A stretch of 64,000 nucleotides of DNA from a virus (IMGVR_UViG_3300021387_000025:32001-96000), one strand, 5' to 3'. Positions 6,737-52,064 are shown, counted from the stretch's first letter. Notes: generated from the sequence alone by a model not told the origin. Made by a program: numbers and translations.

Positions 6737-8645
6737 TGTACGATTAAACAAAAACTTTACAACTCAGTTTAATAAATTACAAGCTGAATACGGGGAAGAA
6801 TTTGCGCGCCTTAACGGTCTTGGAGACGAATAGCTTTCCTACACTGATTTCATTCAAAATTTTATTGACACAGAAACAGTTGCCGATGCTTCAATTGACA
6901 GTAATGCAAATGTCTCTTCCAAAGATATGCGTACGTTAATGAATGAAATGCCTAAGCCGCATCGTAAACTTTTAGCATATAACAAAATCTATTTTGAATT
7001 AAATAAAAAATATGGTTTTAAAACTGCTAATGAATGGCTTCGCGCAGAATGGAGTAAAGCACTTTATATGCACGATGCAGATACAGCCACATTTTTACAT
7101 TATTGTTTTGCATATGACTTAAAAGATTTAGCTGAGAAAGGATTATTCTTTTTAAATGGATTTAACTATGAAGCGCCGCAGCATTTATCGACTTTTGTTG
7201 ATTTTGTAAAAGAATTTATTAGTTTTGCAGCAAACCGCAGCTCCGGCGCGGTAGGTTTGCCTAACTTAATTCCTTATATGTATTACTTCTGGAAGAAAGA
7301 CTGTGAAAATGGATATGCAACAAAAGATGCTGATTACTATGCTCGTCAGCAGATTCAAAGATTCATTTATGCCGTTAACCAGCCTTATGTGCGTGATGGT
7401 ATGCAATCGGCCTTTACGAATGTCAGCGTATTTGACGGACCATATTTGGAAGCTTTGTTTGGCGGATCAGAGTTCCCCGATGGAACTTTTATGATTGATG
7501 AAATAGAAGAAATTAAAGAGTTCCAAAAAGTTTTTATGGAAGTGGTGGCAGATATTCGTCAAAAGAATATGTTTACCTTCCCCGTATTAACAATTTCACT
7601 CCTCAGGCAAAATCACAAATTTATTGATGAAGATTTTGCGCGGTGGGGTGTTGCGCATAATATGAAGTGGAATGATTCTAATCTTTTTATTGATGATAGT
7701 GTCACCTCTCTTTCAAACTGCTGCCGTTTAAAATCTAATATTGATGACTTAGGCTATTTCAATTCCATAGGTGGTACAGCACTCAAAGTTGGTAGTGTAA
7801 AAGTCTCTACCGTGAACCTCGCGCGCCTTGCATTAGAACACGACAATGAACAAGATTATCTTGTCGCACTTCGTGATTTAGTTGAGCTTGATTGTAAAGT
7901 TCTTGATGTTGTAAGACATATTATTGAAAGAAATGTTGAAAAAGGATTGCTTCCAAATTTTTCAAAAGGTTTAGTTGATTTTGAACATCTATATAATACA
8001 GTTGGCATTATTGGTGTTTATGAAACAATGAAAAAATTTGGATATACACGCCAAGACGAATTTGGTAACGTGTATTATACGCCAGCAGCAGACCAATTTG
8101 GAAAGAAGATCTTTGAAGTAATTCATCGTACTAAAGACCAATTTGCGCTTGATAAGAATTATAAAATCAATCTTGAACAAATTCCAGGCGAATCCTGCGC
8201 CGCTAAGTTCCAAAAAGCTGATGAATTATTGTTTGGTGATAAAGTAGTTGATGATCTACCGCTCTACGGAAATCAATTCATCCCGCTTGGCATTAAAACA
8301 ACAATTCAAGAAAGAATTAGAATTGCATCATTATTTGATTCTTATTGTAACGGTGGGTCAATCGCGCACATTAATATTGAAGCTCCATTTAATAATTTTG
8401 AAAAAGCTTGGAAAATGACTGAATATATTGCAGATCAGGGATTGACTTATTTTGCTTTCAATACAAAAATCCAAGCTTGTAAACATAATCACGCCTTCTA
8501 TGGAAAGATTTGTCCGTTATGTGGAGAACCAGTAGCCACTGAATATACTCGTGTAGTAGGATTCTATACTCCAATTCAGTCATGGTCAAAAGAACGCAAA
8601 GCAGAGTATAAAATGCGTGAGTGGGAGAATGTAAATGCTAATTAA
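6723..8645 (+). CDS. nrdD: Anaerobic (class III) ribonucleoside-triphosphate reductase, 640 aa (one TAG at 6831)
   Basis: SNCCRL, FTFP, GGSIAHIN, CxxxH..CPLCG, and glycyl-radical motif RVVGFY; start extended to ATG 6723 by TAG readthrough. Confidence 0.92.
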
Positions 8646-10085: not shown

Positions 10086-10978
10086 TGAAAGAAGATAAAA
10101 TTATCAGCTTAGAAGAAGTTAAAGAGCTTAGTAAAGTATTAGATTCTACCTTCCCCACAGAAGAAAATTCAAATGAATCAGATATGAGTACATTGATGAT
10201 AAATCTGCTAAATATGCCTGACGAACAATTTGATCTTATAGCGCCAGGAGTATTGGAAGGTTTTGAGCGTTCAGTCAATAACCCAAATAATAGAATTGCA
10301 TTCGCGCAAGCAATGAATTCTCTTGGATATACTGCAGATGATATGGTAGAAAGTATTGATGAAATTACAAAATCCATTGATGCTGTTGATGTTATACCAG
10401 TCATGAAAAAAGATTTCTTAAAAAAGTTAATTGGTATTTTATTTAATACTATTAATGAAACTGAAGGAATTGCAAAACGATATATTTCCATTCCAATTGA
10501 ATTATGTCACGAAAATGCAAAAGTTCCACAATACGCGCATGTCAGTGATAGTGGAGTCGATGTATATGCTCTTGAAGATATAACAATTCATCCAGGAGAA
10601 ACAGTACTTGTTCCAACGGGTATAAAAGTAGCATTGCCGCCGGGATATGAAATTCAGGTTCGTCCAAAGAGCGGCCGCGCACTTAAAACAAAACTTAGAG
10701 TTGCCAATACGCCTGGTACAATTGATAGTGGATATCGTGACGAAATTAAAGTTATAATTGAAAATATTGAGCCTTCAATTAAAAACATGACAGTTGATGA
10801 TAATGGACGCGTAACTTCTGTTTTATTTGGATCTGATTACTTTATAGGAAAAGGTGAGAAATTTTGTCAGTTGGTACTTTCGGAAGTACCTAAAATGGCG
10901 TTCTATAGAGTTGATTCAATTAAAGAGGTTGATGAAATAGACCGTGGAGGTGGATTTGGTTCTACTGGACTAAAATAA
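10085..10978 (+). CDS. dut: Trimeric dUTPase with about 130-aa N-terminal extension
   Basis: Motifs SGVD, RPKSG, GTIDSGYRDE, CQL, RGGGFGSTG; start at ATG 10085 after GGAGG. Confidence 0.9.
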   Translation: MKEDKIISLEEVKELSKVLDSTFPTEENSNESDMSTLMINLLNMPDEQFDLIAPGVLEGFERSVNNPNNRIAFAQAMNSLGYTADDMVESIDEITKSIDAVDVIPVMKKDFLKKLIGILFNTINETEGIAKRYISIPIELCHENAKVPQYAHVSDSGVDVYALEDITIHPGETVLVPTGIKVALPPGYEIQVRPKSGRALKTKLRVANTPGTIDSGYRDEIKVIIENIEPSIKNMTVDDNGRVTSVLFGSDYFIGKGEKFCQLVLSEVPKMAFYRVDSIKEVDEIDRGGGFGSTGLK

Positions 10979-44018: not shown

Positions 44019-44300
44019 AAACTCCGCTTTTTTCGCGCCGAAAACAAAAAAATTTTTTAAAAAGGTATTGACAAATCCCTTTTCTCATGATATAATAGTA
44101 TCATAGAAAAGGGAAGTGGAGTGGACACCGAGGACGCAAACATCCAACCAACAATCGAGTTAGTCATGACTAACTATTGCCCGGGCGCCAGTTAGTTGCG
44201 ACTAACCGCGCGAAAAAATTTTTAAAAAATTGAAAAAAGGGGTTGACAAATACCGGTTCATCTGCTATAATAGACTTATCAAAAGAAAGGAAACACCGAC

Positions 44301-44759
44301 ATGAATACCTCGATTTTCAACTACCTCATCGACAACTACAACAAACTCTCCTACACACACAACTACATTTTCGGTTTCGAATTCAATCATACAATCTATA
44401 TGGCACACGCTGACGCCGAAGTTCTCCCCTACGTGCTGACGCTGGACAAGGCAAGCCGTGGCGCTGGTTACAGCATCCGCTTCAAGCCCAACAAAAATCA
44501 GAAAATGGTTCTGATCACGAAAGCTGAGGTTCTCTGCTCCGCTGAATATTTCGAAAGTGAAGTAGCCGAAAGCAAGTACAACGCTGGTGAGATTTTCGAA
44601 AAGATGGTAACCGAAAGATTCGGTCAGACTTGGGAAAAAGACAATGTTCCCTTTACCGAAGACGGAGACCTCACAGTTGACGGAATCGCTTATCAGATCA
44701 AATTCAATAAAGCAACTTTCATCAATGAAAAGTCCCTCGCAAGGTTCCTCGCAATGTGA
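44301..44759 (+). CDS. PD-(D/E)xK (QxK variant) nuclease-fold protein, paralog A2
   Basis: Same motifs and length as 41015-41473. Confidence 0.7.
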   Translation: MNTSIFNYLIDNYNKLSYTHNYIFGFEFNHTIYMAHADAEVLPYVLTLDKASRGAGYSIRFKPNKNQKMVLITKAEVLCSAEYFESEVAESKYNAGEIFEKMVTERFGQTWEKDNVPFTEDGDLTVDGIAYQIKFNKATFINEKSLARFLAM

Positions 44760-44862
44760 ACCTTGCGACTTTTCTTTTGCCCGGGCGCGCCGAACAGAAG
44801 TTCGAGAAAAAATTTTTGAAAAAGCACTTGACATTTTCGACAAGGTATGCTATAATACATAA

Positions 44863-44937
44863 TGTCAGGAGGAGAGAAAGGTAAACCTCGGCAAGCCATA
44901 TAGGGAACGGGTTCAAATCCCGCGGAGTCGCTCTCCA
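44863..44937 (+). ncRNA. Candidate small tRNA-like structured RNA
   Basis: Own promoter, no ORF; GGAGAG/CTCTCC closing stem and CGGG-TTCAAAT-CCCG T-arm. Confidence 0.45.
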
Positions 44938-45007
44938 AACCACGAAACTTTTAAAAAGTTGTGAAAAACCTCTTGACAAATCAAATCAAATGTGCTATAA
45001 TAAAGGC

Positions 45008-45222
45008 ACAGTAAGGGAAGGAAAACCCAAACAAACCCCTCGATCAAGCCAGCGTTCAGCCCTCTGTGAAAACAGAGAAACCGCAACCGACAGGACGGAA
45101 GGCGCAAGGTGCCTATGTAAGACGGACAACGAGGTTAAAGAGCGGTTAGCAAACAACTCGCAAGGGTACGAACCCCTAACGCCGTGGGGTGCGTGAGTCT
45201 GAAGGAACTAAAATCCCTTTCA
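45008..45222 (+). ncRNA. Candidate about 210-nt structured ncRNA
   Basis: Own promoter, no RBS-led ORF, GC-rich, several nested helices including CTCTGT-GAAA-ACAGAG. Confidence 0.55.
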
Positions 45223-45442
45223 AAAACAAATGCGACTCTATGGCACCGCCATAGGTCGCGCCCGGGCCAAATTTTTTAAAATTATACTTGACAAATTAAA
45301 AAATCTATGCTATAATACATATAGAAAAAGAAAAGAAAAACAAAGGGCTTGCGGTAGTTGAATAAGATAGTTTGCAGAGACTTGCTCCTTTGAATTATTT
45401 GAAAGACTACTAACCCACCATTAAAAAGGAGGAAAACTTATA

Positions 45443-45721
45443 ATGATGATTAATCCCGAATATGCAAAACCTATTCTTAAACTTTCTAACTTGCTCAATG
45501 AGCGCAACATTCCCCACACAGTAAATGTGATTTGGGACGGTTTACAGATTCGCTTCCCTTGGAATGGTGGAGATATTATTTGCCATTCAGGTTCTTACTG
45601 GCATGAATATGGACATGTGGAATCAATGGGATGTCCTTGGGACAAGGACGATGTGACTTGTCTTCGTGTTGACGAGGCAGGCGAACTTGTTGCTGATTGG
45701 TGGGCAGAGGTTGGGGATTGA
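45443..45721 (+). CDS. Hypothetical protein, 92 aa
   Basis: AGGAGG RBS; about 120-nt leader after promoter 45288. Confidence 0.75.
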   Translation: MMINPEYAKPILKLSNLLNERNIPHTVNVIWDGLQIRFPWNGGDIICHSGSYWHEYGHVESMGCPWDKDDVTCLRVDEAGELVADWWAEVGD

Positions 45722-45822
45722 CCCAACCGTGCCCGGGCCGCCAAAAATTTTTGAAAACTACTTGACAAATCTACTTTTATATGGTATAATGTATTCAGAA
45801 AAAGAGAAAGGAACACTTAAAC

Positions 45823-46260
45823 ATGACAACTATTTTCTTTGATATGGACGGAACAATTGCTGATCTGTACGGCGTAGAAAATTGGTTAGAATATCTTCAG
45901 AATGAAGATGCTTTCCCTTATGTAAATGCAAAAGCACTCCTAAATTTACAAGCACTCGCGCGCAGACTCAATAATTTACAGAGAAAAGGATATAGAGTTG
46001 AGATTATTTCGTGGCTTTCTCGTACTTCTTCCGAAAATTATGATAGACTGGTTACAACTGCAAAAATTGAATGGTTAGAAACTCATTTACACTCGGTTCA
46101 TTTTAATAAAATTAATATCGTTCGTTATGGTACTAATAAAGACAACTTCCGCCATTCAGATTTTGATATTTTATTTGATGACGAAGAAAAGAACCGCGAA
46201 AACTGGGGTGGAATTTCATACAATGTTGATAATATTCTTGAGGTGTTGAGGAGGTTATAA
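45823..46260 (+). CDS. HAD-family 5'(3')-nucleotidase-like phosphatase, paralog B2
   Basis: FDMDGTIADLYGVE..LFDDE; collinear with 42543-42980. Confidence 0.8.
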   Translation: MTTIFFDMDGTIADLYGVENWLEYLQNEDAFPYVNAKALLNLQALARRLNNLQRKGYRVEIISWLSRTSSENYDRLVTTAKIEWLETHLHSVHFNKINIVRYGTNKDNFRHSDFDILFDDEEKNRENWGGISYNVDNILEVLRRL

Positions 46261-46394
46261 TGAGCAAAAAGAAAAAGAAAACTACGGACCGTGGGCCAAC
46301 TTTCGTTGGATTATCTCCTATTTATGAGAAAACAAAGAAAGAAAGAATTGAAAGTAAATATAGAAAGCATAAAGGGCGCCAACTCGATGAGTAG
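46260..46394 (+). CDS. Small basic protein, 44 aa, apparently ending at TAG
   Basis: GGAGG RBS and TAATG coupling; the TAG lies in the loop of the terminator hairpin. Confidence 0.55.
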   Translation: MSKKKKKTTDRGPTFVGLSPIYEKTKKERIESKYRKHKGRQLDE

Positions 46395-46521
46395 AGGGCG
46401 CCTTTTCTGTGGCCCGGGCGCCGAGTTAACATAGACTAACTAAAAATTTTTTGAAAAAATACTTGACTTTTTGAAAAAGATATGATATAATTGATTTATC
46501 AAAAGAAAGGAAACAAATCAA

Positions 46522-46677
46522 ATGTTCGGTGATCTTGTAAATCTCTATTGTTCCTATTGTGATCTTGCGGACTACTACTTCTGGGCTTCTCGTGATTGGG
46601 ATCGTAAAGAAAAATTCCAGGAGTATAAGAAACTGGCAAAGAATATCGAAGAAATTTTGAAAGGAATGTGTGAATAA
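46522..46677 (+). CDS. Small protein, 51 aa
   Basis: Cassette promoter and RBS. Confidence 0.65.
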   Translation: MFGDLVNLYCSYCDLADYYFWASRDWDRKEKFQEYKKLAKNIEEILKGMCE

Positions 46678-46678
46678 A

Positions 46679-46870
46679 ATGAATGAAGTTTGGTATAAGA
46701 TTGTAACTCCTCAGACAACCGTTGAAATTCAGGACTATGCAACCGCAAAGCGTTTGGAAAGAAACGGCGCGCAGGTTGAAAGAATTTATAAATATAAAAA
46801 TCTTTCGTGCATCACGGATGAAAAGAGAAGAGAAAAAATTCTCAGAAAGTACGGACTGTCGATGGTGTAA
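46679..46870 (+). CDS. Small protein, 63 aa
   Basis: AAGGA RBS; hairpin over the stop codon. Confidence 0.65.
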   Translation: MNEVWYKIVTPQTTVEIQDYATAKRLERNGAQVERIYKYKNLSCITDEKRREKILRKYGLSMV

Positions 46871-46958
46871 ACCATCGATGGCCCGGGCCAAAAATTTTGC
46901 TTGACATTTTCTAAAAAGTATGCTATAATAGATTTATCAAAGAAAAGGAGATTTTCAA

Positions 46959-47132
46959 ATGACTCACATCGAATTAGTTGAAAAGATTATTGAAGGTTTT
47001 CAGAAGCAATTTAAAGAATATCCAGTAGAAAGTGAAAACGAAGAAACCTTCCGTCAGGGCATGATTTTTGCTTACAAATACTTAATTGAAGTTTTAAAGA
47101 ACAATGGATATCCCTATATAGAAGAAGATTAA
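46959..47132 (+). CDS. Small protein, 57 aa
   Basis: Cassette promoter and AAGGAG RBS. Confidence 0.65.
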   Translation: MTHIELVEKIIEGFQKQFKEYPVESENEETFRQGMIFAYKYLIEVLKNNGYPYIEED

Positions 47133-47207
47133 AATTTTTCAAAAAGCACTTGACAAAATAAACTTTATAGTGTATAATAGTCTTATCAAAAGAAAGGAAA
47201 TATAAAA

Positions 47208-47339
47208 ATGTTTTACTTTTTAATGAGTCTTTTAAGTGAAAATCCCGCGGGTGGTCCACAGATGTTTGGAGCTTTGTGTGACGGTTTTTATTTTGGAATT
47301 TTGCTTTGTCAGATAGTCAAGGCAATTAGAAGGAAATGA
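47208..47339 (+). CDS. Small hydrophobic protein, 43 aa
   Basis: Cassette promoter and RBS. Confidence 0.6.
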   Translation: MFYFLMSLLSENPAGGPQMFGALCDGFYFGILLCQIVKAIRRK

Positions 47340-47447
47340 GCGAACACTTGTTCGCTCTTGCCCGGGCCGCCAATTTTTGAAAAAGTTCTTGACAAAATAA
47401 AAAAAGTATGCTATAATGAATCTATCAAAAGAAAGGAAATAATAAAA

Positions 47448-47645
47448 ATGGCAACATTAAGTTTGAAAACTGCTATGAACATGATGGATATTGTTAGTTA
47501 TACTCTTTGCCGCACTGTTTGTCAGGATGAGACTTTTAAGACTATGTCTCATGAAGAATTGACCGAATACATAACTAACACTACAGAAGAAATTTTCGTT
47601 GCTTTTTGTGATGAAGTAGGAATTGATGAAATAACAGAATGGTGA
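47448..47645 (+). CDS. Small acidic protein, 65 aa
   Basis: Cassette promoter and RBS; start moved to ATG 47448. Confidence 0.65.
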   Translation: MATLSLKTAMNMMDIVSYTLCRTVCQDETFKTMSHEELTEYITNTTEEIFVAFCDEVGIDEITEW

Positions 47646-48024
47646 TCCCTTCTTTCGTGCCCGGGCGCGGTTAGCATAGACTAACTTGAAAATTTTTTAA
47701 AAAGTGCTTGACATTTTCGGGTGTTTGTGATATACTATATATTGTCAAGGGGAGATAGAAAGCCACGGCAGACAGCGGTACCGCAAGGTATAAAAACAGT
47801 AAGAAAATTTTCAAAAACCCCTTGACAAACTCCACAAAATGTGGTATAATAAAGGTACAAAATCAAGAGGGCGTGAGAAAATGGAAGCGCTTAAAAAAAT
47901 AAAAAAAAGTTGAAAAACCTCTTGACAAACTCAAAAAAATGTGCTATAATAAACACATAAGAAATGGAGATGAACTCCAAAAAAACTTGAGGGTCGCAAC
48001 CTAATAGCGAGAAAGAGGTCTGAT

Positions 48025-48405
48025 ATGACGAATCGTGAATTTCTGAACACCATTATCAATGCAAACATCTCTGATGAGATCACCGCGCAGGCACAGGACA
48101 TGCTTGCAAAGCTGGACGCTCGCAACGCAAAGCGCGCCAGCACTCCGTCAAAGACGGCTGTAGCGAATGAGCCGATCAAGGCAAAGATCCTTGAGCTTCT
48201 CGGCAACGCGACTGAACTGATGACTGCTCCGCAGGTCGGTGAGGCAGTCGGCGTCAGCACTCAGAAGGCTTCCGCACTTCTCCGCCAGATGGTAGAGGTC
48301 GGCACTCTTACCTCGGAAGAGGTCAAGATTCCGAAGAAGGGCAAGATGAAGGGTTACACCCTCGCAGAGGGCGCGCAGTATCTCGATAACGAGATCGCGC
48401 AGTAA
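48025..48405 (+). CDS. Coiled-coil plus winged-HTH DNA-binding protein, paralog C1
   Basis: MTNREF..MTAPQVGEAVGVSTQKASALLRQMV..KGYTL. Confidence 0.75.
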   Translation: MTNREFLNTIINANISDEITAQAQDMLAKLDARNAKRASTPSKTAVANEPIKAKILELLGNATELMTAPQVGEAVGVSTQKASALLRQMVEVGTLTSEEVKIPKKGKMKGYTLAEGAQYLDNEIAQ

Positions 48406-48574
48406 CCCATAGTTAAAACCACAAGGGAGAGAGAAATCTCTCCCATTTTTTCGGTTTCGAGTTAGTCACGACTAACCGTGCCCGGGCCGCCATCCCGAAA
48501 TTTTTTAAAAAGTAGTTGACAAATTAAAAATTTTATGATATAATAAATCTATCAAAAGAAAGGAAGTACCCAAA

Positions 48575-48892
48575 ATGAGAAATTTTGATTGGTTTGATGA
48601 ACTTTATTGTGTTGTTAAAGAAGATGGAACTTTCGCAGGCGTTCCTTGTCAGTCGATTGAAGAAGCAATTGAACTTGCCGCGCAACATGATGGAAGTAAA
48701 ATCTTTGATATGAGACTTGATAATGAATCCCTTTGGGAATATAATGATTATGATCCATATGAAAATATTCGATCTTGGGAAAGAAAATGCGAACAAGATA
48801 TTGAATACATGATGCGGGAAAACGAGGATTATAATTGTGATGATGATACGGGTTATGATCCTTATATGGGTTGTTATACCGATGAGTGTTAA
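48575..48892 (+). CDS. Highly acidic protein, 105 aa
   Basis: Cassette signals; D/E/Y-rich. Confidence 0.7.
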   Translation: MRNFDWFDELYCVVKEDGTFAGVPCQSIEEAIELAAQHDGSKIFDMRLDNESLWEYNDYDPYENIRSWERKCEQDIEYMMRENEDYNCDDDTGYDPYMGCYTDEC

Positions 48893-49183
48893 CCATCGGT
48901 TTGCCCGGGCGCGAACACATGTTCGGTAAAAACTTTTTGAAAAAAGTACTTGACTTTTCGGCGAAAGTATGGTATTATATATATTGTCAAGGGGAGAGAT
49001 AAGCGAGTGAGCGCTCCTCGGTTCAAAAGTCCTGCCGAGTGGCAGATAACAAGTAGATGAAAAAATCTTGAGAAACCCCTTGACAAACTTCAAAAAGTAT
49101 GCTATAATAAGCATGTAAAACAAAAGGAGATGAACTCCAAAACTTAAGGGTCGCCACCATACAGCGAGAAAGGATTTTATACC

Positions 49184-49531
49184 ATGACAAACCGTGAATT
49201 CTACAATGCAATCGTTGACGCTAACCTCTCTGATGAGATCACCGAAAAGGCGCAGGCGCTTCTGGCGCAGATCGACGCGAGAAACGAGAAGCGTGCTTCC
49301 ACTCCGTCGAAGAAGTCGGTCGAGAACGCACCTCTCAAGGATGCAATCGTAGCCCTCTTCAATGACGAGGTTAAGGTTCTCACCGCCGCCGAGGTCGGTG
49401 TTCGTCTTGAGATCACGACTCAGAAAGCGTCTGCTCTTCTGCGTCAGATGGTCGAGGGCGGTGTCCTCACCGCCGAGGAAGTAAAGGTTCCCAAGAAAGG
49501 AAAGGTCAAGGCTTACTCCCTTGTGGGGTAA
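49184..49531 (+). CDS. Coiled-coil plus winged-HTH protein, paralog C2
   Basis: Collinear with 48025-48405. Confidence 0.75.
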   Translation: MTNREFYNAIVDANLSDEITEKAQALLAQIDARNEKRASTPSKKSVENAPLKDAIVALFNDEVKVLTAAEVGVRLEITTQKASALLRQMVEGGVLTAEEVKVPKKGKVKAYSLVG

Positions 49532-49745
49532 CCGCAACACCGAGGGGAGAATTTTCTCCCCTCTTTTTTAGCAAAAAGTTAGTCTTGACTAACTCGCCCG
49601 GGCCGCCATCACAATAAAATTTGAAAAAATTATAATTTTTTTGTATAATATATTTAGAAAAAATAAAAAAGTTTTGAAAAAAACACTTGACAAATCCCAT
49701 TTTATATGATATAATCTACTTGTAAAAAGAAAGGAGATAAACAAT

Positions 49746-50114
49746 ATGGCAACTTCCAAGAAATCCCTTAATGACAAACTTCGTTATCGTTATCTGAACC
49801 TTATTAGTGACTATCTTCATTCACAGGACGAAGAGGTTCTCGTAACTGGTTCGAATGAAATCTGTATCCCTTGTCTTGACGAAGAGGGAAACGATGAATT
49901 TATGGTTATCACTTTCAAGGTTCCCACTGGTTCGCGCGATGGTGACGCATACGACGGTTATGCACTCGCCGAAGAGTACGAAATGAAGTGCAAGGAAAAG
50001 ATGGAAAAGGCGAAAGAGTCCGCAAAAAAGAAAGCGGAAAAGATCGCGCGAGATAAGGCAAACCGCGAAGCACGCGCGAAAGCAAAAGCGGAACATCAGG
50101 CAAAGGAGGCGTAA
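49746..50114 (+). CDS. Hypothetical protein with K/A-rich helical tail, paralog D1
   Basis: TGSNEI..PC.D.EGNDEF..KVPTG..YDGY shared with 51693-52064. Confidence 0.75.
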   Translation: MATSKKSLNDKLRYRYLNLISDYLHSQDEEVLVTGSNEICIPCLDEEGNDEFMVITFKVPTGSRDGDAYDGYALAEEYEMKCKEKMEKAKESAKKKAEKIARDKANREARAKAKAEHQAKEA

Positions 50115-50215
50115 GCCTCCGTTTGTCTGGCCCGGGCAAAAATTTTAAAAAACTGCTTGACAAGTTTAAAAAAGTATGGTATAATAACTATAGAAAACAG
50201 AAAAGGAGAATAAAA

Positions 50216-50422
50216 ATGAGTGATAAAAATAACAACAGTGTAAAATCTGGTATCGGTTTCAGCGGTTTGCTTACAATTGCTTTTGTTGTATTAAAACTAT
50301 GTGGTGTAATCACTTGGTCTTGGTTGTGGGTACTTTCCCCGTTGTGGATTTCAACGGCGATTGTTCTACTGATTGTGATTATGATTTTGATTATTGTCGC
50401 TGTGAATTCAGAAAGTACTTGA
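50216..50422 (+). CDS. Small membrane protein, 68 aa
   Basis: GIGFSGLLTIAFVVLKLCGVITWSWLWVLSPLW, a motif common in phage membrane proteins. Confidence 0.75.
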   Translation: MSDKNNNSVKSGIGFSGLLTIAFVVLKLCGVITWSWLWVLSPLWISTAIVLLIVIMILIIVAVNSEST

Positions 50423-50474
50423 CAAATCAGACTTAATGTGCTATAATAAAACTATCAGAAGAAATGAAAATGAC

Positions 50475-50609
50475 ATGGACGAACACGATAAAAAAGAAAT
50501 AGAAAAACTTAAAAGTTTTAAAAAATGGTATCTTTGGTTTTTGTCAGCTTCAGAAGAAGAAAAAAAAGAATATTTAAGAAACAGATGGAAAGCAGAAGAA
50601 AGGAAATAA
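50475..50609 (+). CDS. Small charged protein, 44 aa
   Basis: Follows promoter 50419; weak RBS. Confidence 0.4.
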   Translation: MDEHDKKEIEKLKSFKKWYLWFLSASEEEKKEYLRNRWKAEERK

Positions 50610-50769
50610 AAATTATAATGATGAAAAAGAGGAGTAATCCTCTTTTTGCCCGGGCCGCGGTTAGTGGAGACTAACTAAAAAAATAAAAAATTTTTTTCAA
50701 AACCACTTGACAAATCGGTTCTTTTATGGTATAATCTCTATTGTAAGTTAAAGAAAGGAACACACTACC

Positions 50770-51411
50770 ATGAATCATCTGATTGTACTTGACACTGAAA
50801 CCACAAACTCCATCGAAGAACCCCTTGCATATGACATTGGTTGGGCCGTCGTAACCGAAGAGGGTAAAGTTCTCAAAACTGAAAGCTACGCTGTGGCTGA
50901 AATTTTCCTTGACAAGGAGCTGATGCAGGTAGCATATTTTGCGGAGAAGATCCCGCAATATTGGGAAGAGATCAAAAACGGTAACCGCAAGCTGGCGCGT
51001 CTGTCAACGATTTTCAAATCTCTTTACGCTGATACTCGCGCCTATGATGTGAAAGAAATCTATGCACACAACGCGCGTTTTGATGACCTCAGCCTCAAGC
51101 TTACTCAGCGCTTTATTAGCGGTTCGAAATATCGTTACTTCCTCCCCTATGGCGTGAAGATGTGCGACACCTTGAAAATGTCAAGAGAAGCCTTCGGCAA
51201 AGACCCTGAATATAAAGCCTTCTGTGATGAAAACAATTACAAGACGCCGAGAGGTCAGCGCAAAATGACCGCAGAAGTTCTATATAGGTTCATCAGTGGA
51301 CAGAATGACTTTGAAGAGGTTCACAAGGGGCTTGATGATGTATTGATCGAAAAAGAAATTTTAATCGAGTGCAGACGGCGCGGTGTGGTTGATGGGTCAC
51401 TCTTCGAGTGA
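50770..51411 (+). CDS. DEDDh-family 3'-5' exonuclease
   Basis: LDTETT, AHNARFD, H.GLDDV motifs. Confidence 0.85.
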   Translation: MNHLIVLDTETTNSIEEPLAYDIGWAVVTEEGKVLKTESYAVAEIFLDKELMQVAYFAEKIPQYWEEIKNGNRKLARLSTIFKSLYADTRAYDVKEIYAHNARFDDLSLKLTQRFISGSKYRYFLPYGVKMCDTLKMSREAFGKDPEYKAFCDENNYKTPRGQRKMTAEVLYRFISGQNDFEEVHKGLDDVLIEKEILIECRRRGVVDGSLFE

Positions 51412-51692
51412 CCCGAAAAACGGCGCCCGGGCGCCCATAAGAAAATCTTATAGAAAAAGTGCTTGACTTTTTCAAGATTCTGTGGTATTATATATATTGT
51501 CAAGAGGAGAGACGACCATCGCAAGAAATCTTGTCGGGAACCCTAACACGGCACGTCCTATGACCGCCGCAGAAGGTGAGGCGTAGGGAGAGAGGACTCA
51601 AAAAATTTTTTCAAAAACTTTTGAAAAACCCCTTGACAAACCTCTGAAAATGTGATATAATAGACCTATCAAAAGAAAGGAAGGTACATAAA

Positions 51693-52064
51693 ATGGCAGT
51701 ATCTCGTAAAACTCTTCGTGACAATCTCCGCACCGCTTATCTCGATCGTGTGATCGCACTCTTCACCGCTGACGGTGAGGAAATCCTGCGGACGGGTTCC
51801 AATGAAATCGCCCTCCCCTGCGTGGACGCTGAGGGCAATGATGAGTTCGTAGTCGTAACGCTCAAGGTGCCGACTGGCGAGCGTGGCGGAGATCCGTATG
51901 ACGGCTACGGCGAGGCCGAGGCCTACGCTATGAAGGTAGCAGAAAAGGCCGAGAAGGCCAAGGAAGCGGCGGCGAAGAAGGCCGCCAAGATTGCCAAGGA
52001 CGAGGCTGACCGCAAGGCAAAGGCCGAAGCCAAGGCGAGAGCCAAGACGGAAAAGGGAGAGTGA
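51693..52064 (+). CDS. Hypothetical protein, paralog D2
   Basis: Collinear with 49746-50114. Confidence 0.75.
   Translation: MAVSRKTLRDNLRTAYLDRVIALFTADGEEILRTGSNEIALPCVDAEGNDEFVVVTLKVPTGERGGDPYDGYGEAEAYAMKVAEKAEKAKEAAAKKAAKIAKDEADRKAKAEAKARAKTEKGE

Follow-up and report, generated by a model that had tools for sequence, protein, structure and literature searches.

Promoter-framed closed RNA units in the early region of a rumen-type phage, members of an apparently undescribed class

The early region of the 120-kb "rumen-type" phage IMGVR_UViG_3300021387_000025 contains four units, A to D, that lack an open reading frame (ORF), follow consensus early promoters and belong to a large, apparently undescribed class of promoter-framed closed phage RNAs. 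The window is the whole stretch of 64,000 nucleotides that was analyzed, bases 32001–96000 of a 119,955-bp IMG/VR virus record with direct terminal repeats and 36% GC; positions are counted from its first letter, and all features lie on the plus strand unless stated otherwise. Each unit has a sigma-A promoter, a predicted start GUCARGRGG, a complementary CCYCUUGAC 55–175 nt downstream and no ORF. Judged from sequence comparison, the units are very probably promoter-driven, non-coding, structured RNA modules under selection, which combine a conserved terminal helix with family-specific bodies. The reading that we favor, and consider evenly balanced between right and wrong, is that each unit would be the gene module of a small, structured non-coding RNA, which the host sigma-A RNA polymerase would transcribe as soon as infection begins.

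Layout of the four units and their closing helix

Unit A (114 nt, 44864–44977; closing stem 44864–44872/44969–44977) is located behind promoter P1-A (44828–44856), which is of TTGACA-17-TATAAT type, TG-extended and preceded by an UP-like A/T tract. The 3′ strand of its closing stem consists of the CCTC plus TTGAC of the next promoter, P2-A (44973–45001). Unit B (83 nt, 47744–47826; closing stem 47744–47752/47818–47826) contains an inner GCGGUACCGC hairpin and is flanked by P1-B (47708–47736) and P2-B (47822–47850; CCCC-TTGACA); a third promoter, P3-B (47922–47950; CCTC-TTGACA), drives a leader and the winged-helix gene 48025–48405. Unit C (99 nt, 48986–49084; closing stem 48986–48994/49076–49084) contains the hairpin CUGCC-GAGU-GGCAG and is located between P1-C (48950–48978) and P2-C (49080–49108; CCCC-TTGACA), the latter of which drives a leader and a winged-helix paralogue (49184–49531). 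Unit D (139 nt, 51499–51637; closing stem 51499–51507/51629–51637) is framed by P1-D (51463–51491) and P2-D (51633–51661; CCCC-TTGACA), and P2-D drives a 123-aa gene at 51693–52064.

An earlier note on this DNA had described the units as promoters followed, at one identical offset, by GTCA(A/G)G(G/A)GGAGA, by GC-rich hairpins without an ORF and by another promoter, and this description proved accurate. In 4/4 cases, GTCA lies 36 nt from where the −35 box begins (44828 to 44864, 47708 to 47744, 48950 to 48986 and 51463 to 51499); the motif is present in all four units, and further consensus promoters follow at 44973, 47822, 49080 and 51633. The unit cores are 53–57% GC, compared to 36% for the genome. 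The ORF-less stretch is 83–139 nt per unit, the longest ATG/GTG/TTG frames being 15, 11, 17 and 23 codons in A, B, C and D, respectively; these frames of 11–23 codons do not show the conserved start, frame and peptide of a small-protein gene. Allowing at most two mismatches, motif TTGTCARGRGGAGA occurs five times in the window against 1.22 expected, a count reached by 0/100 shuffles. Four of the matches (44862, 47742, 48984 and 51497) are the units and the fifth lies inside a gene; no further copy is present in the whole 119,955-bp genome.

The ordinary mRNA leader of the phage has the form (−10)-N6-7-ATCAAAAGAAAGGAA-N7-ATG, and the standard leader AUCAAAAGAAAGGAA holds the Shine-Dalgarno sequence. 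The 5′ starts of the units, GTCAAGGGGAGAG, occupy the same place as ATCAAAAGAAAGGAA, and in relatives GTCAAGAGGAAAGGAG-N-ATG heads real genes. The 5′ motif of the units is therefore a variant of a common start-site, leader and Shine-Dalgarno module that lacks the start codon.

The 5′ sequence GUCAAGGGG is the exact reverse complement of CCCCUUGAC (CC(C/U)CUUGAC) in the −35 region of the following promoter. GTCAAG is thus an inverted copy of the CTTGAC −35 box, as the earlier note had remarked, and the first nine bases of the unit pair with the next −35 region. The resulting helix is present in the minimum-free-energy fold of 4/4 units and turns each unit into one domain. The unit A stem, GUCAGGAGG/CCUCUUGAC, is compensated and contains one G-U pair; the unit D stem contains one A.C mismatch. 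Exactly the five promoters located behind ORF-less units have CCYC in front of TTGACA; it is found at 0/23 of the other early promoters. Single-sequence folding z-scores (A −1.7, B −3.9, C −3.5, D −1.5) are modest and not strand-specific, so the case for structure is built on comparison with relatives.

The pattern GTCAAGRGG-N55-85-CCYCTTGACA, which leaves R (stem position 7) and Y free to vary, was found in at least 116 IMG/VR contigs of 7–200 kb. Among the matches listed, to which the following counts also refer, promoter-preceded units combine R and Y at stem position 7 as A-T 36, G-C 32, A-C 5 and G-T 2 times (Fisher p = 1.3e-13). When the bodies of about 135 units, a few of which are reverse-strand readings, were grouped, about 97 unrelated clusters resulted; the match between the closing strands is therefore not due to common descent of a few copies. 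In 116/133 units the closing 3′ strand doubles as a −35 box. The helix is also kept where its 3′ strand is not part of a promoter, in at least five units of relatives (L016 2665 and 4311, L027 4178, L012 1069 and L042 381), and stems of 13–14 bp are found in relatives in which both strands were extended together.

A scan of genome contigs gave only seven strict promoter-plus-unit matches, all in contigs of gut or rumen metagenome-assembled genomes (MAGs); the other matches were due to chance or to a different repeat that resembles an insertion sequence (IS) or a miniature inverted-repeat transposable element (MITE). As a separate observation, bacterial MAG contigs (L251 4560–4720, L264 5441–5516, L283 5395–5476, L304 600–1127 and L256 3018–3092) contain longer TGTCAAGGGGAC(G/A)G... 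inverted repeats, some with tandem 14-mers; they are IS/MITE-like in appearance and contain the GTCAAGGGG word without a promoter.

Bodies of the A and D families

Treating the four units as one family, as the earlier note had done, is not tenable, since only the promoter, the 5′ leader and the closing stem are common and the bodies are unrelated. Structural covariation in homologues, to which the same note had pointed as a check, was found in the internal hairpins of the A and D families and in the closing stem, and the class is widespread. No known RNA family was recognized: the window gave no Rfam 15 match at gathering score, and nothing was found over units A–D at E<=10, with pRNA, YrlA, 6S RNA, ribozymes and riboswitches among the families covered. 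In 12 related loci, Rfam identified two ordinary tRNAs only, both outside the units.

Unit A contains a CAAG-loop hairpin (~44889–44900), a T-arm (44908–44922), the hairpin GGAG-UCGCU-CUCC (44924–44936) and an A/U hairpin (44940–44965). It represents a conserved family of ten copies in nine contigs. In alignment A3, 90.7% of cells are paired, compared to 81.2% after shuffling (0/500) and 31–51% in slid controls; 13 pairs changed on both sides, and the T-arm and the next hairpin (loop GACG or UCGCU) covary strongly. The GGAGAG/CTCTCC closing stem proposed earlier for this unit fared less well: both words are present, but their pairing is not kept in homologues, which keep the local hairpin GGAG-UCGCU-CUCC and the outer stem GUCAGGAGG/CCUCUUGAC instead.

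The proposal that unit A is tRNA-like stands for the T-arm and fails for the cloverleaf. The arm CGGG-TTCAAAT-CCCG is present at 44908–44922, as described, and matches the T-arm of the phage's own tRNA-Ser(GCU) at 16/16 nt; it has a 5-bp stem, which covaries in 10 homologues, and a UUCRAAU loop. The proper anticodon arm is indeed missing, there being no 7-nt anticodon loop, and an extra hairpin follows the T-arm instead of an acceptor 3′ strand. ARAGORN found 0 tRNA genes in the window, Rfam RF00005 did not match unit A at gathering score or at E<=10, and no tRNA or tmRNA gene lies inside the units in the window and 26 related loci. As a probe for further members, the pattern GGCAAGCC..GGTTCRAATCC returned mostly ordinary type-II tRNAs of other phages, and only L191, L192 and L237 were new A-type members. 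The family model R1 gave no match in 151 genomes sampled from the order of a Butyrivibrio hungatei record, which is a weak negative.

Two observations concern ordinary tRNA genes. A near-identical type-II tRNA occurs in many IMG/VR phages of 30–60 kb (L176, L177, L180 and ~40 other loci); it has a GGCAAGCC...GGCUUC variable arm and CGCUAAC in the anticodon region, and may be an amber suppressor. In the source phage, ARAGORN identified 29 tRNA genes on the minus strand at genome positions 104415–119327, outside the window, including one with a CUA anticodon (labelled tRNA-Pyl by ARAGORN) and one with an odd anticodon loop.

In unit D, the conserved GACGACCAU (51511–51519) is followed by hairpin HP1 (51521–51534, loop AAAU), HP3 (~51556–51588), the conserved GAGAGGAC (51590–51597) and an A/U hairpin (51607–51627). 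Scanning with GTCAAGRGG-N-GACGACCAT identified eight homologues in phages of 19–180 kb, nine sequences in all. Their common fold comprises the terminal helix, a small hairpin whose ACGAC loop is invariant, HP1, HP2, which is variable, HP3, the invariant GAGAGGAC and the A/U hairpin. At five positions HP1 pairs in 9/9 sequences, and up to four pair types occur. In alignment A5 (covariance model R2), 87% of cells are paired, compared to 78.4% after shuffling (0/500) and 39–52% when slid. Pairing was taken from anchor-based counts and the covariance model, since MAFFT plus RNAalifold misaligned the hairpins.

A coding reading of unit D was considered and rejected. L016, L042 and L053 have frames of 34–41 codons starting MTTI, but start, frame and stop are unconserved; the "start" varies among ATG, GTG, CTG and GAG, and the Shine-Dalgarno-like run lies directly against the ATG. 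In 3/9 sequences a 1-nt indel causes a frameshift, and across the hairpin third-position changes equal middle-position changes, which fits base pairs.

The arrangement of the units differs among phages. In the closest relative, whose flanking exonuclease-like protein is 84% identical, the slot of unit D is occupied by a unit of the same class with an unrelated body, and in more distant relatives by a gene-less unit of yet another kind. One relative contains seven units in two tandem arrays. Members of the A and D families lie upstream of different genes or units in different phages. Locus L036 has a stand-alone non-coding cassette (minus strand, 7446–7690 of the reverse-complemented locus), in which a promoter is followed by a 135-nt domain closed by 13 bp of GUCAAGAGGAAAG/CUUUCCUCUUGAC stem, then by one more hairpin and a canonical terminator.

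Other gene-less stretches and the early promoters

Two gene-less units are additional to those of the earlier note. Unit B2 (47851–47926) is a short ORF-less transcript, in which UCAAGAGG (47863–47870) pairs with CCUCUUGA of the next promoter (47919–47926). Unit F (45002–45262) is a 260-nt ORF-less transcript of 52% GC driven by promoter 44973, with a hairpin at 45230–45257 plus GCCCGGGC at its end; Rfam gave no match for it, and the fetched loci contain no homologue. Units A and F together form a wholly non-coding cassette with two promoters and no gene. The fifth gene-less unit that had been suspected behind promoter 44068 is real: in unit E (44068–44200), the promoter (44068–44096) is followed by ~100 nt without an ORF up to a GCCCGGGC junction. 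Because it has neither a GUCAAG start nor a closing stem, unit E falls outside the class of units A–D. Its −10 box is flanked by 16-bp inverted-repeat arms.

The setting is rich in promoters. On the plus strand at 41.5–51.7 kb of the window, consensus promoters of the sigma-A type (TTGACA-17-TATAAT, most of them TG-extended, with A/T-tract upstream elements) number about 28; they head small gene cassettes, which close with canonical hairpin-plus-U terminators. Many of them have promoter-specific inverted repeats in the spacer or around the −10 box (44075–44115, 47832–47844, 47941–47960 and 49099–49114). Just 5′ of the unit A and unit C promoters, CGAACA-N4-(T)GTTCG palindromes at 44788–44801 and 48912–48925 resemble the Bacillota LexA box; in the corresponding slot at other junctions, GTTAGTC-N-GACTAAC palindromes adjoin the invariant GCCCGGGC. 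The leaders of the two winged-helix paralogues (47951–48024 and 49109–49183) share a GGAGAUGAACUCC hairpin, which holds a 3–8-codon mini-ORF, and a GGGUCGC...GCGA hairpin. As both hairpins are kept in many of the relatives, they may form a control site, either autoregulatory or acting at the RNA level. Against GenBank phages, blastn returned promoter-sized matches only (Staphylococcus, Lactococcus and other phages) and no relative, and a literature search returned no published description of such units.

Possible functions and significance

If each unit is the gene module of a small RNA, it could work as follows. Transcription is predicted to start ~7 nt past the −10 box, at the G of GUCAAG, with no start codon after it. 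The first nine nucleotides would pair with CC(C/U)CUUGAC at the far end of the unit, which in the source phage is the −35 box of the next promoter, to give a closed domain whose terminal helix runs from nucleotide +1 around the family-specific hairpins. The predicted body consists of the T-arm and two covarying hairpins in unit A, and of four to five hairpins with two single-stranded motifs that do not vary in unit D. Pairing of the 5′ end, together with a helix at the 3′ border, may shield the domain from 5′-end-dependent decay and from 3′ exonucleases, and the protected domain would then accumulate as a stable RNA after trimming, despite the primary transcript running on. According to the passages of PMC3997798 that cite its refs 109 and 179, 5′ stem-loops and 5′-proximal ribosome binding stabilize RNAs in Bacillus. 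Acting in trans, the variable bodies would most likely bind host factors, or serve as decoys for them, in host takeover, and a T-arm-type body might bind a protein that recognizes the tRNA elbow. We consider it as likely as not that the units yield a discrete stable RNA acting in trans; trans action would probably be on host factors, and a decoy or protein-binding mode is put forward tentatively, as possible rather than probable. In the gene-free cassettes (A plus F, and L036), the RNA must be the product, because no gene is present.

Several results weigh against the small-RNA reading. No terminator-like site was found in or after units A–D, whereas canonical ones follow the neighboring genes at 44749, 48425, 49542 and 52081; primary transcripts begun at the upstream promoters must therefore continue into whatever unit or gene comes next, and three of the four units would, at least to begin with, form the 5′ portion of an mRNA. 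The phage genome offers no complementary target beyond tRNA T-arms, and no body motif common to all units, as a possible protein site, was found. Body turnover is fast. For unit B no homologue was found, and for unit C there is one only (L100, minus strand, position 10675 of the reverse-complemented locus), which differs by one compensated change in the closing stem and one in a hairpin. Covariation does not distinguish the strands (A-C 5 vs G-T 2 at closing position 7; G-U 11 vs A-C 6 in alignment A3), so it is the promoters that define the transcribed direction. In units A and D, the A/U hairpin adjoins the 3′ strand of the closing stem, and it may be a DNA-level UP-element palindrome rather than an RNA structure.

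Much of this would also fit cis-acting 5′ domains of read-through mRNAs, in which the +1 helix stabilizes the message against RNase J1/RNase Y-type decay or the domain tunes the downstream gene, and no free small RNA is needed. The missing terminators between units B, C and D and their downstream genes, the winged-helix gene that often lies downstream of units, and the derivation of the 5′ motif from the normal leader and Shine-Dalgarno module (GTCAAGAGGAAAGGAG-N-ATG being a true coding leader in relatives) all favor it. The study of the polypurine 5′ stabilizer reportedly concerns phage SP82. Both 5′ stem-loops and polypurine 5′ stabilizers are established in Bacillus, as far as these same passages go (PMC3997798, refs 109 and 179). 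However, the downstream gene has its own consensus promoter within the 3′ end of the unit, tandem arrays of 2–4 units with one promoter each would be needless for stabilization, and the cassettes A plus F and L036 are wholly non-coding. The A and D families are conserved whatever gene lies downstream, their multi-hairpin bodies with invariant loops far exceed what a stabilizer needs, and there is no expression platform. We consider this cis explanation, the main rival, rather doubtful. A riboswitch or attenuator leader finds no match either, as no terminator lies in or after the units and the promoter of the downstream gene is inside the 3′ end of the unit.

Base-pairing regulatory RNAs would be another possibility; the single-stranded GACGACCAU and GGAGAGGACA of unit D would pair with host mRNAs or stable RNAs and shut off or redirect host functions. 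The invariant unpaired motifs between covarying helices of the D family and the early expression in a host-takeover region are consistent with this, but no complementary site is present in the phage genome and no motif is common across families, which leaves the idea unlikely. For unit A, a tRNA gene that has decayed or been remodelled, or else a mimic of tRNA able to divert anticodon nucleases or further defences directed at tRNAs, is suggested by the covarying T-arm with its UUCRAAU loop, identical at 16/16 nt to that of tRNA-Ser(GCU), and by an upstream GAAAGGUA that resembles the 5′ end of this tRNA. The lack of a cloverleaf and of a 7-nt anticodon loop, the negative ARAGORN and Rfam tRNA results, even at E<=10, and the extra hairpin plus A/U hairpin between T-arm and 3′ strand argue otherwise; the same non-tRNA architecture is unchanged in 9 contigs, so simple tRNA decay does not explain it, and we hold a tRNA origin or mimicry to be improbable. 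A DNA-level or neutral feature, such as protein-binding or MITE-like inverted repeats, or spacers and lost-gene remnants between tandem promoters that soak up RNA polymerase, appears very improbable. It would agree with a closing repeat that is equally a DNA palindrome, with G-U not being favored over A-C, with hypervariable bodies and with the IS/MITE-like elements that carry TGTCAAGGGGAC inverted repeats in bacterial MAGs. Against it, the repeat variants are matched within units, even inside one genome, the internal hairpins covary in two families, the cores are 53–57% GC in a 36% GC genome, and the bodies, different from those of MITEs, are not repeated copies. A type III (ToxI-like) antitoxin is not indicated: there are no tandem repeats of ~34–36 nt, and the neighbors are winged-helix and unknown small proteins. 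More generally, nothing observed points to the specific roles suggested in the earlier note, namely a decoy for anticodon nucleases, an antitoxin mimic or an RNA anti-CRISPR, which would copy a CRISPR repeat of the host; its other suggestion, long regulatory leaders, stays a candidate, as no terminator follows units A–D.

To our knowledge, few phage non-coding RNAs have been characterized. The pRNA of the phi29 family is an early, sigma-A-driven structured RNA of 120–170 nt from Bacillota phages; its ends are paired, its sequence diverges fast while the fold is kept, and it is in Rfam. Like pRNA, the units are structured phage RNAs behind early promoters with their 5′ and 3′ ends paired in a terminal helix; different from pRNA, they have no Rfam match, and several unrelated RNAs occur per genome, in the host-takeover region. 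Unit A joins a two-end terminal helix with a tRNA-type T-arm, as do the bacterial Y-RNA-like YrlA and other tRNA-like modules (T4 stable RNAs), but it lacks the D-arm/acceptor module and an Rfam match, and nothing tRNA-like is present in the other units. HK022 put RNAs and T7 RNase III sites are ORF-less structured RNAs right after strong early promoters or between early genes, and the units likewise lie directly 3′ of early promoters. Unlike the put RNAs, they have no common fold able to bind RNA polymerase, and their closing helices of 9–14 bp are too short for a classical RNase III site of the T7 type. Adenovirus VA RNA and the herpesvirus small RNAs are abundant, have paired termini, and bind and neutralize host proteins; they belong to eukaryotic viruses and offer an analogy only, with no homology to the units. 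With Bacillus 5′ stabilizers (aprE 5′ stem-loop, SP82 polypurine element and STAB-SD; see the same passages of PMC3997798, refs 109 and 179), the units share pairing from +1 and a polypurine, Shine-Dalgarno-like 5′ sequence that opens an early phage transcript, but they are multi-hairpin domains of 83–139 nt with family-specific loops in tandem and gene-less cassettes.

Taken together, neither the two covariation-supported families nor the scaffold, which well over a hundred uncultivated phage genomes share, have an Rfam 15 match. The same DNA word acts as a −35 box and, in the RNA of the unit before it, as the 3′ strand of the terminal helix. Through this unusual architecture the evolution of promoters is coupled to RNA structure, and the units become portable cassettes. 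More speculatively, and with considerable doubt, a universal RNA frame, its helix encoded by the start site of one promoter and the −35 box of the next, may display fast-evolving, unrelated aptamer-like bodies, several per genome, in gut and rumen Bacillota phages. It would be an RNA arsenal against host factors or defences, comparable in bacterial viruses to the small decoy RNAs that animal viruses make, and co-encoding of promoter and RNA structure would allow cassette shuffling. As a natural scaffold, the frame could also find use in the expression of stable RNAs. If the units are 5′ stabilizers only, they would still be a clear natural case of modular mRNA-stability design; if they are stable and trans-acting, they would suggest that host takeover or counter-defence by Bacillota phages has an RNA-based layer.

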